Below, piece by piece: positions 31,395 to 38,487 of a DNA stretch of 64,000 nucleotides (positions are counted from its first letter, which is position 1; each line of letters begins with the position of its first letter). Source of the stretch: Peribolospora baueri. Taxonomy: Eukaryota. The translations under genes were made by a program, and so were the position numbers. The stretch spans positions 124,001-188,000 of the forward strand of contig JAMDHS010000011.1 of the NCBI GenBank assembly GCA_029717555.1, given 5' to 3'. The notes beneath the pieces were generated by a model, which saw nothing but the letters and a program-made list of their open reading frames with translations, had not been told where the DNA came from and did not search any database.

Positions 31395-34300
31395 TCATCG
31401 ATCATCACTCGTTCTGCCGGTGAACCCTCTCTTCGCTTCGGCGTCCAGCTCTGCTTTTCCCGCCCCGTCGCCAGAGCCGAAGACGGGCTTGTCGTCGGGG
31501 AGGACGAACAGCGAGGTATCGTAGTTGCGCTTGTTGAACACGGTGTACTCTCGTCCTGTCCAGCGGCAGAACACCCACGTCGCCGCCGCACGGAAAGCGA
31601 AGGCGACGAAGGACCAGCCCACAGACCCCTGCGCGAAGCGAACGAACGAGCGAAGCAGTGGACGAGTCAGGGCTGTGTGCCGCAAATCGCGTCCTTCGGC
31701 GTGACAGGCCGCCGGCGCTGGTCAAATCGTATCCCGGGTTAGAGAACGGGCGACTCACCAGAGGGGCGCAAAGGAAGGCGCCGAGGACGGAGTAGTCTGA
31801 CACGTAAAGATCCTATAAAGGCAAAAAGAAAACATGGGGCGATCAGTATCCATCCGCTTCGCATCCGACTTTCACCGCGCACTGACATTGGGCAGAGTGA
31901 TGAGCTTGCCCCCTTCATAAGCGCTGCCGAGGTAGATCGTGCCAAAGATGAAGACGGTGAAGAAGCCACCCATTGCGCCTACGAAGACCTGGTGAGCAAA
32001 GATGGTGGTTCGAGCGTGCGAGCGGTGGGAAGAGATGTGAGCCGACGGTGCGTGTCAAAGGTAGACGGAACGAGTAGCACCGTGTAGGAGACTCACGTCG
32101 AATCCGTTCAGGAACCAGAAGTGGTCGACCAAACCCAGCAGAGGGGCCGGCAACGCAGCTGTGCGATGGAGCGATCCGAAATGACATGAGAGAGCGGCTC
32201 TGTACAGTTTCATTTCTTAAACGCGGTCGCTTCACGAAAGACAAACTCACCCGCGGCGCCCAAATCGGCGATCAAGAAAACCTCTAGGATATCGACGTTC
32301 TTGACGGCCAGCACGACGCTAGGCACATTGAGCGCAAGAAGGAGGACGCGACTGACGACGAGCGGCACGCGGTTGAGGAACACGTCGTTCTGAAGCGTCG
32401 AGATCTGAGCGCTCTGCAGCGTGTCGTAGGCGGAGCAACTCAGGGCGCTTGCGAGAACGAGGATGATACCCTGAACCCAGTCGGGTAGGGTTCCCAGGAC
32501 GATGAAGAACGTGTCCGAACCATCCGACTGGCCTTGCACCCAAAGGCCGGACCATTGTGCAAGAGGGCCGGTGACGCCGACGAGAAAGCAGATAGCGAAG
32601 AGAATCGGAGTAGCGATGATCACGCTAACGTAAAGGTCCTTGTTCGAGCGAGACGCGAAGGCGCGCTCTGCATGTGGACGTAGACCCGAGCCGGATGAAT
32701 TAATCAGCCGCGACGCCTCCACGTCAGCCCACGATATCAGCGCATATCCCACTTACGCCAAAAGCCTTGGTTGAACATTTGACTGAAGATGAGCGCAGCG
32801 GGAAGGATGTACCACAGCTGTCCGCCAAGCGAGTGGCCCTTCGTCAGACCCGAGCTTTCAACGAGGTCTGGTTGGATTTTCAGCTTGACGCCGAAAGCAA
32901 CTGTGGCCATGATCTACAGAAATTCAAGCCGATAGATGTATAATCAGAGACCCAGACAGCAAACTCAAGAATGGAATCTAGCTCTGCCTTCTGCTCACAA
33001 TAAAAATCATCACGACTACGCCTTGCACGTTGTCCGTCCACAAACTGGCCTTGAAACCTCCATAGGTGGTGTAGATGGTCGTGGTGATGGCGACGATCAG
33101 AGCTGCGATCGTCGGGTCGACTCCGCCGAGGGAGCTGACCACGTATCCGTACGTATTGAGCTCGGTGATCCTGAGAGGTGAGTAAGATGTGGAGACCGCT
33201 GCTAATGAGATGAAGGAGACGCGGACCAGATATGGAGACTGTCGGGACCAGAACCCACATGAAGCACAGCATAAACCCGCAGAATATAACGGCCGCCAAA
33301 ACGCCAACAGGCCAACCGAACCGCCTACGGATGTACTCGGAGAGGGTGAAGCCGTCTGGACACTTGCGACGGATGGCCGGACCGAGCCATGCAAAGGCCC
33401 AAAGAGGCACGACGGTGGAGAAGCAGTAGGCGCTAAGCCCAAGCAAGCCGGCCGTAGGGATTACGGCCACTTGAGGATATCCGAATAAGAGCGAGGACGA
33501 CATGTCTGTTTAAAGCGTTGGGGCAGAAAAAAGAGAAATGATAAGTTCGATGGAGCCCTACCTTCCCAATGGGGAAGGCGCGGGGGACAACAAAAACGAA
33601 GAGAGAACGCGCCAGGGAGCGCAAAAGGAGAAGTGAGGCCGTCTTCAACGGACACTCGGGAAAGAAACAAAAGGAAAAAAAAAGGCAGCAGCGTTCCCTT
33701 CGCGAGCATTGTCTCGATCAGGTCATTAACGGTGTACATCTCAGCCCGCGCCTCTGTCCGACGTTTTCTTCCAGCCCGAGTCCCCTAAGAGGCGCACAGG
33801 CAGGGTCGAAATGCGTCGGACATGAGGGGACATGTCCTTTCCCTGGCTTCAACTCTGGACTAATCCAAGAGAGATGCAAGCAGAAAGAGCACGCGCGAGC
33901 ACCCGCAGCGGTTGCCTTTCCGTTGTCTTCCCTCTTTTCCCGACCCAATCCATCGACGCCTCTGCCGGAGAGGCGAAGACGGAGCGGACAAGGAAAGAAG
34001 GAAAACCGAACGGAGAAGAACGAGGCGAGAGGGAGGCAGAAGAGATGATGTGCACGTCACCGTCATGGATACCCTATACGAAGATGCGAGCCTGGGCTAT
34101 TGCATTTTGCCAATTGCAGGATGGAAGACGACTGTGGGAGAGGAGGTAGGAAAGAGATACGCGCTCGAAGCGATCCAGTTCAGCGAGAGTGGGAAGGCTG
34201 AAAAAAACAAGAGATGAGATGGACGGTCAGAGGTCCAGGATCAGCTGCTATTCCGCGGGTCCAGCGTTGACGCACCGCTCTGGCTACGAATGCCGCTGAG

Positions 34301-34405
34301 GAAGTCGACCTTGCTCTTGACTCTGTAACCGGCGTACAGCCCTACGAGCATAAAGCCGCAGAGGCTGCAGTACACGAGTGCGTTGGCTTGTTGAACTGTT
34401 AACAT
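31395..34405 (-). CDS. Sodium:solute symporter family transporter (DUR3/DUR31/NCU01977-like), probable thiamine/HMP transporter
   Basis: Spliced reading MLTVQQANALVY...DFLSGIRSQS-AFPLSLNWIAS-NMSSSLLFGYPQ...CPDGFTLSEYIRRRFG...YTTYGGFKASLWTDNVQG...RAFASRSNKDL...SCSAYDTLQSA...FLIADL. Many TM segments. Contains a TPP aptamer in intron 2. Confidence 0.88.
33681..33919 (-). ncRNA. TPP riboswitch aptamer (THI element) in intron 2 of the transporter
   Basis: Minus strand: AAAGGCAACCGCT-GCGGGTG-CTCGCG...[~150-nt P3]...CGCGGG-CTGAGA-TGTA-CACCGT-TAATG-ACCTGATC-GAGACAATGCTC-GCGAAGGGA-ACGCTGCTGCCTTT. Contains GGGTG, the CUGAGA pyrimidine sensor, ACCUGAU, a P5 hairpin and GCGNAGGGA in the correct order, with pairable P2/P3/P4/P5 and flanking AAAGGCA/TGCCTTT. 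Confidence 0.95.
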
Positions 34406-34741: not shown

Positions 34742-36708
34742 ATGACGGTCGCAAAATTTCTAGAGACAATCCAGGATCTCTCTGCGCTTGTCGACAAGTA
34801 CGACAATTTCCTGTTTGGTGAGTCCAGGTGCGCCTTGGACGCATGCGATGCTCCTCAGGGCGGCTTGGCTCACCGATCACCACGCTTCCTCCGTTATTTT
34901 CTCGTGGTCTGACCGTCTCCGACAGACTGTGATGGAGTGTGAGTGGAGTAAGCCGAGAACTTTTCCCGAGACGGAAGGGAGGTATCTCGCACGGTCATGC
35001 TGCAATGAATCCAGCTGACTTGGAGAGCCAAATTTCTTTCTCCCCGTCAACACATGGACGGGGACCTTGATGTAGTCTCTGGTCGGGAGATGACACGATA
35101 AAGGGGGTCGTCTCTGTGCTCGAGAAACTCCGTAAGCGAGGTAAGCGTGTGGTCTTCCAAGTTCCTGCCGGAGAGGGCGAGCGAGCGCAAAGCTGCAGCT
35201 CGCCTTCTCCCGGCTTTTCGCCTGCCTTTCGCTGGTCATTCGCTCGCGGAAGACATGCCAGCGAGCATCACTCTTACACGGCCTATAACCTTCCTCATGT
35301 TATTCTTATCTCAGGAAAGAACATTGTTTTCGTCACCAATAACGCTACCAAATCTCGAGCGGCGTTCAAGGAGAAATTTCAGAAATTGGGCATCAAGTCG
35401 GATGTGGTGAGTTGGTCGCCCAGTTCGATCCTGTCCGGTCTGACGGGGACGCATGCCATTTCTCGGTGTATCGCTGGGCGTGGGAAACGATGAACGGGAA
35501 GTCTCCTTTTTCTCCTCGCTTCCTGAATCTCCTTTCAGGACGAGATCTTCTCCTCAGCTTACGCCTCAGCGGCTTACATTAAACACAACCTCAAACTACC
35601 GTCGGACAAGCGCGTCTATGTCATCGGCATGTCAGGCATCGAGGAGGAGCTGGACGCCGAAGGGGTTTTGCACACCGGTGGAACGGTGAGGAAGTGGGCA
35701 GAGGCAGAGCAGGTTGGAGGGCAAGCTGCCGCTTTTAGTTGAAACTAACATAATACACTCTCCCTTGTTCTTTCCTCGACTTTCCGGCACCCCCTCAAGG
35801 ACCCAGCAGACAACGTCTTCCTTCCTGCCCTCGACTTCTCCTCCATCCGCCCCGACCCAACAATAGGCGCGGTTCTCTGCGGCTTTGACATGCACATCAA
35901 CTACAACAAGCTCGCCAAGGCTTATCGATACATCATGGACAACGACGGTTGTTATTTCATATTGACGAATGACGACTCTACTTTCCCTACTGGACGGGGC
36001 ACTTTTCCAGGTGAGTTTGAGGATATCGCCTTGGGGAGCACGTCTGCAACCACAGGGCGAAGCGATGACCGTCTCGTTGCATTGGAACTTTGGCGATCAG
36101 GCGCAGGCTCCATCTCCGCACCTCTCCTCGTCTCTACGAAAAAGATGCCCATTATCGTCGGCAAGCCGCACCCCACCATGCTCGAGTCTATTTTGAAAAA
36201 GTGCGTCTACTTAGTTTCGTCCGCTAAAGGGAGAGGGGGTTTGGGGTTGTCCAAATTCCCCTCCTCGATGGCTATGTCACTCGCGGGATCCTTCGATGCT
36301 GACGAGGTAATATCCCCCTTCATCACTAAACCCACCGCCCACCTCGCTCTGTCCAATCTGTTGTTCCCTTATCCTTTCCGCTCCATATACGCAGGAAGCA
36401 CTTCGACCGTTCCCGAACCGTCATGATTGGCGATCGGCTGAACACTGACATCGAGTTCGGTATCCGCGGTGGCATCGATACCGTGCTCGTCCTTACCGGT
36501 GAGTGGGTGATTCTCCCGATGGCGGCCCGTCGTCCCGTCCGGACGGCGCCTCCTGATCGGACCCGACCTAATCGGAATCACCTCTCGCTCGCCGCCTTCC
36601 TTCCTTGGCACAGGCATCTCCACCCGAGCAGACGCAGAAGGCCCGGAGGCGAAAACGGTGCCGACGTACATCATGAACAGTCTCGGCGACCTCGACTCGC
36701 TGGAATGA
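34742..36708 (+). CDS. PHO13: HAD-IIA phosphatase (4-nitrophenyl/phosphoglycolate phosphatase, Pho13-like)
   Basis: FLFDCDGVLW (assembled through a 13-nt microexon, 34926-34938), FVTNNATKSR, EIFSSAYASA, FILTNDDSTFP, GAGSI, VGKP, MIGDRLNTDIEFG, TVLVLTG. Confidence 0.92.
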
Positions 36709-36969
36709 ATAGTCGGACGGAGGAATGTAGAAGCAAACACGTAGATAAACGCAGAAGGTGCGGTTGGGGTGCGGTTGGGGCGAGGGTTGGGATAGATCGG
36801 TACGCGGCTTGTCGTATGGACCTTGCTCATGGGACCTGAATCGTCCACATGCGTGATACAGTCAGACAGAGGAAGACTGTTGCTAACAAGTCCGTCTTGA
36901 AGCGCATATTGTAGAACAATGAGAGAGCTTTTTTCTACCGTACTCCATTGAATTGCTTTAAGTAAACGA

Positions 36970-38487
36970 TCAGGCAGCCACGTCTGGCAGATCGCCGAAG
37001 CGATACATGCCCCAGGCCTGTGAACGAGGCCGACAAGAACTTATTTAAGAGACTGAGCGATACCCGCAACTGGCCCGACCGACGACTCACCATGCTACCT
37101 TCGTCCATGGCGAACATCTTGCTCGCCGCCTCAGTCGGCCGACTCGCTCCAAGCCCCACGAGGACGGGCAATAAGTGCTCCGGGGAAGGGTGAGCCTTGC
37201 GGAACGTGGGTTGCATGAACAATCCCCGAGCCGCCGACCAGCGCGGATCTTCCTTTTCGTCGGCGGAGACCGGGCTGGACGACGGGATGAGAGCCTCGTT
37301 GACTGCTCGCATGAACGGTCCCGTATATGGAGCGTTCAGTCCAGGTCGTTGCATGTAGGACCATATCTCGCGCTGGAGAGAAAAGAGGGACAGGCCGGGT
37401 AGACGTGGCACAGGAGGATCAATGGCCGGCCGGTGAACCAATAGCCTCTCAAAGTCGCTCACCAGGTTGTGCACGGGCATGCCACTGGCAAGAATGACGA
37501 TGCCCTGGTCCCGGAGACCTCTGAGCGCCTTTCCAAGCTCCAAAGCACCTTCCGGGTCTTCTGTCCTCGGCAAGCTGACTTGGCAGATGGGGATGTCGGT
37601 GCCGCCTTGGCTGGACGAGTTCGAGAGCGTCGAGGAGGCGTTGAAGCCGAACATGGCCTTGAACGGCACCCAGACGCCGTGGTCGAGTCCTCGCTTGACA
37701 GGCTCGGCGCGGACGCCTTGAGAGCGCAAATGGGAAAGCACGACGGAGGAGAAGGAGGACGGGTTACGGGAGTGGAACTGCTGCTTGTAGTAAGAGTGGG
37801 GGAAGCCGTCTGATCAGGGCGAGCGGATTTGTCAACGACCATCTTCCCTTCCGGCGATAGATCGGAAGGAACACATACAGAAGTCGTAAACGAGCGGGTT
37901 TTTCTCGTCGATGTTGACTGTAAGAGTTAAACAGTATGGCAATGAATCAAGGCAGGTCGTGATGGACCGCCCCGCCCGCCTGCTCACCCCAGACGCCCTC
38001 AGGAAGCTCGTCGGCTTGCCAGTGAGCGCTAACGACGACGATACCCTTGGGCTTGACTTTGTCCGTGAGCTCCTTGCCCATGGCCACCCACGCCTTGTGT
38101 GCAGGATGATCGAACTCGAAAAGGGTTGGAGGACCGCCGTGAGATTGACTAAGTCCGGTGGGGAAACGAAACTCGCGGTTGGGTCAGATCTGGATATGAG
38201 CTTTGTCGACCCACTCACAAATACACCGGTACCCTCTGCCCTGACGTGTCCTCGTTGGCCGCAGACATGGCCACCAAACTAGATGCTGATTTGGAGGGAA
38301 GTGAAGAAGCTGGTGAGGCTATGGACGAGCGTTGCGAGGGCTGAGGCTGAGGCACGACGGAGCGAGAGAAGCGAGCGAAGAAGGAAGCTGATGGCCGAGC
38401 CACTTTGAAATCGGAGAAAGAGAGCGCAAAATAAACGGCGAGAGCGAGGACGAGGGCGGACAAGGAGGCGCGAACGACTGAAGACAT
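36970..38487 (-). CDS. Extradiol ring-cleavage dioxygenase class III subunit B (LigB/DODA-like) with N-terminal hydrophobic segment
   Basis: PVYFQSHGGP, VSAHWQ, LVYDF, RGLDHGVWVPF, SGMPVHNL and AHPSPEHLLP across spliced exons. Confidence 0.9.

Follow-up and report, generated by a model that had tools for sequence, protein, structure and literature searches.

A thiamine pyrophosphate riboswitch predicted in the long second intron of a sodium:solute symporter gene of Peribolospora baueri

The DNA analysed here is a stretch of 64,000 nucleotides (nt) from Peribolospora baueri (assembly GCA_029717555.1, contig JAMDHS010000011.1, positions 124,001 to 188,000 of the forward strand), which we call the window and in whose own numbering all coordinates without a locus name are given. 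On its minus strand, at 33921-33679, all conserved parts of a thiamine pyrophosphate (TPP) aptamer are present inside the 659-nt intron 2 of a gene encoding a sodium:solute symporter. We regard this element, with considerable confidence, as a genuine functional TPP riboswitch whose general mechanism would be TPP-repressed productive splicing; in other words, it is probably a thiamine-repressed splicing switch. That the mechanistic details described for Neurospora apply to the window as well is a supposition which we favour with rather less assurance. A TPP riboswitch in an intron of a transporter gene had been proposed earlier by a reading of the same DNA from its letters alone (below, the sequence-only reading), and this proposal is supported by the aptamer parts, by a gene layout like that of Neurospora NCU01977, and by the recurrence of the element, with its pairing kept, in orthologous genes.

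The aptamer and its conservation

The conserved motifs follow each other on the minus strand in the order expected of a TPP aptamer: GGGTG at 33904-33900, CTGAGA at 33744-33739, ACCTGATC at 33723-33716, then the GAGACAATGCTC hairpin and, at 33703-33695, GCGAAGGGA. They were read directly from the sequence, and all of those named by the sequence-only reading lie, base for base, where it had put them. The pattern CTGAGA-N(5-30)-ACCTGATC-N(10-30)-GCGAAGGGA has a single occurrence in the 64-kb window, and none of 100 dinucleotide-preserving shuffles contains it. The 5' half of the element was scored by three requirements: a C before GGGUG, complete pairing (7/7) with the strand that precedes CUGAGA, and a P1 duplex at least as stable as -16.1 kcal/mol. 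Of 3000 shuffled copies of the upstream intron, none satisfied all three at once; when the limits were relaxed to at least 6/7 pairs and a duplex at least as stable as -10 kcal/mol, 7 of 1000 did. The parts of the aptamer, all on the minus strand, are the following.

33679-33921, minus strand: complete TPP aptamer (motifs, local RF00059 match, folds, shuffles and orthologue pairs)
33904-33921, minus strand: 5' strand of P1, consisting of GGAAAGGCA, an ACC bulge, GC, U and GCG (minimum free energy and centroid folds)
33679-33693, minus strand: 3' strand of P1, consisting of CGC, U, GC and UGCCUUUUU (folds; putative alpha-prime role by analogy to PMC3597705)
33745-33899, minus strand: P3, about 155 nt, branched, with the base GCUCGCG/CGCGGGC that includes G33900 and C33744 (folds and orthologue comparison)
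33739-33744, minus strand: J3-2, CUGAGA, the pyrimidine-sensing side (sequence and cmscan)
33730-33733, minus strand: 3' strand of P2, ACCG, the partner of C33905 GG(G)U (orthologue pair comparison)
33695-33723, minus strand: P4-P5 arm, ACCUGAUC GAGACAAUGCUC GCGAAGGGA, the pyrophosphate-sensing side (highest cmscan posterior throughout; orthologue comparison)

Folding of 33921-33677 with RNAfold gave, both as the minimum free energy (MFE) structure and as the centroid, a three-way junction of P1, P3 and P4/P5. In this fold P1 comprises 14 base pairs (bp), formed by GGAAAGGCA(ACC)GC(U)GCG with CGC(U)GC-UGCCUUUUU, and P4/P5 is formed by CCU...CGAG-loop-CUCG...AGG; the P2 pairing (C33905-GG(G)U with ACCG 33733-33730) was placed by hand. 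The core shared with the Rfam model RF00059 consists of P1-P5, CUGAGA and ACCUGAUC...GCG.AGGGA. The alignment of the 3' half of the element (J2-4, P4, P5 and the 3' strand of P1) to this model carries the highest posterior throughout, and the P4-P5 arm at 33723-33695 matches the consensus at that same level.

Orthologous loci were sought in metagenome contigs with an alignment of exon 3 of the host gene, and eight were found (L001-L008). They fall into the sequence types L001-L003 (L001 and L003 do not differ in sequence, and the motifs of L002 lie at the same positions), L005 together with L007, L004, and L006; L008 is distant, with 31% identity. Five of the eight loci have an RF00059 match just upstream of the exon beginning with MSSS, all of these matches being below the gathering score (39 bits in L001-L003, 33 in L004 and 32.5 in L006). 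GGGUG and CUGAGA are identical in L001, L004, L005, L006 and the window. Base pairs were counted on hand-set anchors in five sequences, a small sample made up of the window and the four distinct orthologues, and not on the MAFFT alignment of the five aptamers, in which the variable P3 and J2/4 were misplaced. P2 consists of five standard pairs in every one of the five sequences, and the first three pairs of P3, as well as P4 and P5, are likewise kept in all; nonstandard are P3.4 in L001 and L006 (U-U) and P4.4 in 5/5 sequences (G-A). Double compensatory changes occur in L005, where P5.2 passes from G-C to A-U and P5.3 from A-U to C-G, and P4.1 of L005 passes from C-G to G-U; one-sided variation at P2.1 and P3.3 leaves pairing intact. 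The sequence of P1 is different in all five, and in each the duplex forms (-11.8 to -20.6 kcal/mol). These comparisons support the presence of what appears to be a conserved structured RNA at the same position of the gene, directly upstream of the same exon.

Two features of the orthologous aptamers deserve a separate mention. L005, at 909-1153, and likewise L007 carry a variant aptamer, in which AGCUGAUC...GCGAAGUGA replaces ACCUGAUC...GCGAAGGGA and U stands in place of one G of the pyrophosphate-sensing AGGGA. The order of its parts is GGGUG...CUGAGA...ACCG, a J2/4 of 117 nt, and AGCUGAUC-CACG-UUAAUG-CGUG-CGAAGUGA; in both loci a match to RF00059 is absent at E <= 0.1. The other feature is the stretch from CUGAGA to ACCUGA (the P2 3' strand ACCG plus J2/4), which measures 38-95 nt in orthologues (L001:2892-2929, L004:1857-1951, L006:2855-2907) versus 15 nt in the window. 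The difference results from sequence inserted after ACCG, which in L004 takes the form of a pyrimidine/purine hairpin.

The host gene and its predicted splicing

The assignment of the host gene to the sodium:solute symporters, made by the sequence-only reading, agrees with a match of exon 4 to the Pfam family SSF (3.5e-8) and with orthologues annotated as 'urea transporter'. A search with exon 3 retrieved 31 proteins, many of them so named, with a top identity of 86% (Pseudozyma flocculosa among these), followed by Testicularia cyperi (85%) and by Ustilago species and Sporisorium (83%); the more distant matches belong to Tilletia, Malassezia and Tilletiaria, with 75% for Tilletiaria anomala (P0021) and 69% for M. 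furfur (P0026). Judged by this exon, the closest relatives of the window are in the Ustilago/Pseudozyma/Sporisorium group (83-86% identity). A profile search yielded 57 proteins, and the named ones are all Ustilaginomycotina 'urea transporter' or hypothetical proteins, with the exception of one protein of Sporothrix (53% identity); named NCU01977 or DUR31 proteins were not among them. The 5' part of the gene is built as follows.

34276-34405, minus strand: coding part of exon 1, starting with ATG 34405-34403, MLTVQQANALVY...SGIRSQS and the initial base of a codon split by intron 1 (list of open reading frames; tblastn with P0006)
34198-34275, minus strand: intron 1, 78 nt, GTGCGT...CAG (sequence; frame of exon 2 fixed by orthologues)
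34165-34197, minus strand: exon 2, a 33-nt micro-exon, AFPLSLNWIAS and the first base of an Asn codon (orthologue comparison)
33506-34164, minus strand: intron 2, 659 nt, with the riboswitch inside, donor GCGCGT 34164-34159 and acceptor CAG 33508-33506 (orthologue junction; open frame)
33259-33505, minus strand: exon 3, AC followed by ATG TCG..., MSSSLLFGYP...; MSSSLLFGYPQVAVIP...CFM (exon-3 protein search, tblastn and junction reading)

The 659-nt intron given by the sequence-only reading is that of the sole junction between exons 2 and 3 (34164-33506) which yields the ...NWIAS-N-MSSS... of the orthologues, and the contrast in length that it had pointed out is real, since the other mapped introns measure 78 nt (intron 1) and 88, 85 and 89 nt (introns 3, 4 and 5, with the donors GTGGGT, GTGAGC and GTAAGT, all three junctions having been read directly). 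One more intron candidate, of 53 nt and with the donor GTGAGT (32250-32198), comes from automatic exon chaining and is unverified. The motif ...NWIAS-N-MSSS... occurs in 5 of the 11 orthologue proteins that were fetched (P0006, P0009, P0014, P0016, P0022), and the micro-exon recurs in L001, L004 and L006, while in L005 it is joined to exon 1. The gene is collinear with P0006 over its full length; in the tblastn alignment stops occur only in the read-through intron stretches, and the aligned exon segments contain neither a stop nor a frameshift.

Among the same 11 proteins, the annotation of two (P0008, P0026) skips exon 2 and reads 'QS-D-MSSS', and the models of four (P0001, P0003, P0005, P0015) lack the upstream exons and start at or near MSSS. 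As public models skip exon 2 or begin near MSSS in this way, the riboswitch intron seems to disturb the automatic annotation of the orthologous genes.

The choice of the donor of intron 2 decides the reading frame. We joined 15 donors, lying between the distal donor (S1, 34164) and the aptamer, to the acceptor at 33506: the frame stays open only for the GC donor 34164, and each of the 14 GT donors leads to stops at codons 76-80. Two of the outcomes are marked by the following positions.

34155-34160, minus strand: GTATCT, a GT donor situated 4 nt downstream from the GC one; its use gives a frameshift and a stop at codon 79 (donor test)
34097-34099, minus strand: TAG, the first in-frame stop if intron 2 is retained (open reading frame 34097-34240)

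In NCU01977, as described by Li and Breaker (2013, PMC3597705), the 3' shoulder of P1 (alpha-prime) and a complementary element (alpha) near the distal donor S1 pair with each other in the absence of TPP, so that S1 use is promoted and a contiguous open reading frame results. In the presence of TPP the P1 stem is formed instead, and either splicing starts at proximal donors or the intron stays in the transcript; both outcomes yield truncated products, which makes the system an OFF switch. According to the same paper, most species have alpha less than 60 nt away from S1 and alpha-prime less than 60 nt away from the 3' splice site. By homology with this gene, when TPP is scarce the P1 3' shoulder of the window would be free for an alternative pairing, and intron 2 would be excised from S1, giving the sole open reading frame. 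When TPP is bound, P1 would close, the use of S1 would drop, and retention of the intron or the use of internal GU donors would rise. The retained or internally spliced products would hit stops at codons 76-80, so that less transporter would be made with TPP, because the alternative products all run into stops, and the element would thus work as an OFF switch. The present analysis shows the aptamer with its position and its conservation in orthologues, the gene model and the consequences for the reading frame; we infer the binding of the ligand, the direction of the regulation and the partner of the 3' strand of P1 by analogy with the known systems.

Two neighbouring features of the window may be recorded here. 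The open reading frame 36935-37813 on the minus strand matches the Pfam family LigB (aromatic ring-opening extradiol dioxygenase, E = 1.2e-11). Pieces of open reading frames at 35100-36500 on the plus strand resemble what we take to be a HAD-type phosphatase (...VFVTNNATKSR..., ...GDRLNTDIEFG...); the only piece scanned of these, 35749-36426 on the plus strand, gave no Pfam match at E <= 0.001.

Points against a Neurospora-type switch and alternative explanations

Several observations weigh against the interpretation of the element as an ordinary TPP riboswitch of the Neurospora type. First, cmscan of the whole window gave no match to RF00059 at the gathering score. In a permissive local scan of 33300-34400 RF00059 was the top match (33678-33770, E = 2.4e-4 for 1.1 kb), and its score, 32.8 bits, misses the membership threshold of 54.3 bits; the comparison with RF00059, by which the sequence-only reading had proposed to verify the element, was therefore negative at the level of the family threshold. 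Both the low score and the handling of the 5' half, which was aligned at low posterior and misplaced onto a neighbouring pseudo-P1/P2, are due to the gap of 155 nt (P3) between GGGUG and CUGAGA, which the model is unable to span. RF00059 is described as truncating or missing fungal TPP riboswitches with P3 longer than about 60 nt, the mean length of fungal P3 being about 150 nt (PMC11683625), and on that account a sub-threshold score is to be expected of a real one; the window presents one more case in which threshold-based Rfam scans overlook fungal members with a long P3. Second, the fold of the aptamer (-96.7 kcal/mol) has z = -2.27, and 4 of 200 shuffles are equally stable; the thermodynamic signal is therefore modest. 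Third, the productive donor of intron 2, GCGCGT (34164-34159), is not a GT donor, a fact that had passed unmentioned in the sequence-only reading. The same codon position carries GT in 4/4 distinct orthologues (GTGCGT in L001, GTTAGT in L004, GTCAGT in L005 and GTTAGT in L006). At this putatively regulated site we are dealing either with a GC-AG intron or with an error or polymorphism at 34163.

The remaining points of this kind concern the expression platform, i.e. the partner of alpha-prime and its distances. In the 60 nt downstream of S1 the window contains no clear alpha. Among the complements of alpha-prime the best, candidate (a) below, is at least 188 nt away from S1 and buried in a hairpin upstream of the aptamer, and the second-best, candidate (b), overlaps S1 itself. 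Finally, 189 nt separate the end of the aptamer from the 3' splice site, versus the usual distance of less than 60 nt given in PMC3597705. The elements in question are listed here.

33955-33967, minus strand: candidate alpha (a), GGCAG-A-GGCGU, -17.5 kcal/mol with alpha-prime (duplex energies)
34151-34165, minus strand: candidate alpha (b), the S1 donor region, putatively pairing with AAGGGAACGCUGCU of the aptamer (14 bp; -16.2 and -14.4 kcal/mol in two computations)
34288-34298, minus strand: candidate alpha (c), in exon 1, CAGCGGCAUUC; AGCGGCATT corresponds to RGCGGYRRY with one mismatch (complement and consensus scan)
33912-34026, minus strand: imperfect hairpin of 115 nt, a pyrimidine arm against a purine arm, directly upstream of the aptamer (fold and shuffles)

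RGCGGYRRY has no exact match in 34420-33500; with one mismatch allowed, it matches in exon 1 and at the positions 34064 and 33960. Because the shuffle control for alpha was uninformative (a shuffled U-rich probe beat the real duplex in 199 of 200 cases), we claim significance for none of the candidates. In three of the four distinct orthologues the best complement of the 3' strand of P1 lies near S1, as the published model expects, namely at +3 nt downstream of it in L001 (-20.2 kcal/mol), +57 nt in L004 (-21.6) and +25 nt in L006 (-23.2); in L005 the best is at +212 nt and the second at +86. The distance from alpha-prime to the 3' splice site varies among orthologues, being 40 nt in L001, 62 in L006, 238 in L005 and 389 in L004. 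The upstream hairpin of the window is unusually stable (-57.7 kcal/mol, z = -5.0, with 0/200 shuffles equally stable). At its base it shares nucleotides with the 5' shoulder of P1, and when the whole intron is folded it displaces the outer part of P1 in the MFE structure. This long hairpin is also the cause of weak cmscan matches to microRNA families at 33916-34019 (E from 0.02 to 4.6, far below gathering), which we rejected as microRNAs.

These peculiarities could be accounted for in a different way, one that we consider unlikely and yet worth weighing, by combining the same aptamer with a platform that is not of the Neurospora kind. The S1 region 34165-34151, which holds a GC and a GU donor, would then pair with AAGGGAACGCUGCU in the absence of TPP, and/or the hairpin 34026-33912 would compete with the 5' shoulder of P1. 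Such a platform would make sense of the 14-bp complementarity of the donor region to the 3' strand of the aptamer and of the tandem GC/GT donors with their opposite effects on the reading frame, as well as of a hairpin stable enough to oust the outer P1 in the whole-intron fold and of the empty place where alpha is expected. However, similar duplex energies are found elsewhere in the intron and the shuffle control is flawed; moreover, the masking of S1 at low TPP would reduce the output of the gene in the very situation that calls for a thiamine importer, and L001, L004 and L006 have no comparable hairpin or overlap with S1, alpha being situated downstream of S1 there.

The GC donor might, on the other hand, be nothing but an error of base calling or assembly, or a polymorphism of the strain, in which case the true donor would be GTGCGT and the switch an ordinary one of the NCU01977 type; we regard this as quite improbable. 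It is in keeping with the GT found at the exact position in all four distinct orthologues, with the single T-to-C change that separates the window from the GTGCGT of L001, and with the fact that the five other mapped donors of the gene are all GT. The window, however, bears no sign of low quality, the remainder of the gene is intact, and a minority of fungal introns are known to be of the GC-AG class.

More doubtful still is a lineage-specific elaboration of the platform, in which the choice between tandem donors, the weak in-frame GC at 34164 and the out-of-frame GU at 34160, would be governed by direct pairing of the donor region with the P4/P1 3' strand of the aptamer together with an 'anti-P1' action of the hairpin. 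If true, the tandem-donor choice would represent a new variant of expression platform of the fungal TPP switch, arranged around a GC-AG intron.

It is very improbable that the aptamer is a decaying relic in a gene turning into a pseudogene, with a weak donor that blocks productive splicing: the noncanonical donor and the unusually long distance of the aptamer from the 3' splice site (189 nt) would fit such a decay, yet every conserved position and pair of the aptamer is intact, and the coding exons are collinear with the orthologues and free of stops and frameshifts in the aligned segments. A chance resemblance with no RNA element behind it, to which one might be led by the Rfam score under the gathering threshold, is effectively refuted by the shuffles (0/100 and 0/3000 match the real element) and by the same position of the element, with compensatory changes, in the genes of diverged orthologues.

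Comparison with known thiamine pyrophosphate switches

The interpretation preferred here, a functional TPP riboswitch repressing productive splicing, places the window among systems that are already described, and we agree with the sequence-only reading that the riboswitch class is a known one: the literature already covers the class, the family to which the host gene belongs and the problem of detection. Mukherjee et al. (2018, PMC5882874) name the NCU01977 kind of switch, with its long-range pairing, 'Type II' and report it from urea-transporter genes, those of Basidiomycota included. Its layout, in which a short intron 1 and a small exon 2 precede an intron of about 550-900 nt, is also that of the window (78, 33 and 659 nt for intron 1, exon 2 and intron 2). 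Within Ustilaginomycotina, TPP riboswitches of urea-transporter genes are listed for Tilletiaria anomala (in an intron, Type II) and Malassezia globosa (PMC5882874, supplementary file 2), and a TPPsw-UREA is given for Malassezia furfur (PMC11683625); these three switches belong to the same gene family and riboswitch class as that of the window. The supplements of PMC5882874 hold no entry for Ustilago, Pseudozyma or Sporisorium, and the main text of PMC11683625 makes no mention of Ustilago, Pseudozyma or Moesziomyces. In a survey of titles and abstract openings, outside of which lay Moldovan et al. 2018 (cited in PMC5997356), no literature on a TPP switch in the Ustilago/Pseudozyma group was found.

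As to the function of the transporter, the gene layout and the riboswitch suggest that the host gene is an orthologue of the NCU01977/DUR31-type ('urea-transporter-like') symporters. In Candida parapsilosis and Ogataea an intronic TPP riboswitch is situated close to the 5' end of DUR31, a DUR3-like gene, as in the window (Donovan et al., 2018, PMC5997356). The splicing of Candida DUR31 is reported there to be repressed by thiamin, and Dur31, stated to be the orthologue of NCU01977, to transport thiamin. Candida belongs to a different subphylum from the host of the window. Proceeding from Dur31, it is reasonable to suppose that the protein encoded in the window would be a thiamine-related importer and not a transporter of urea. 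This argues for annotating the 'urea transporter' of the window as a probable thiamine-regulated and probably thiamine-importing transporter.

A close parallel is provided by NCU01977 itself. Its layout, as presented in PMC3597705, equals that of the window: intron 1 is short and constitutive, exon 2 is small, and the aptamer is contained in a large intron 2. Intron 2 is typically of 550-650 nt according to that paper, versus 659 nt in the window. P3 is long in both, in Neurospora being dispensable, and the internal GU donors or intron retention lead in NCU01977 to truncated products of the kind predicted for the window. The window differs in that its host is a basidiomycete (Ustilaginomycotina), S1 is a GC donor, an alpha of the form RGCGGYRRY is missing just downstream of S1, 189 nt lie between the aptamer and the 3' splice site, and a hairpin extends over the 5' shoulder of P1. 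The GC donor and the indistinct alpha element are the sole distinctive features of the window locus. To the known systems, in which the underlying biology is already established, the present analysis adds a delimited TPP riboswitch and a gene model for a smut-type basidiomycete.

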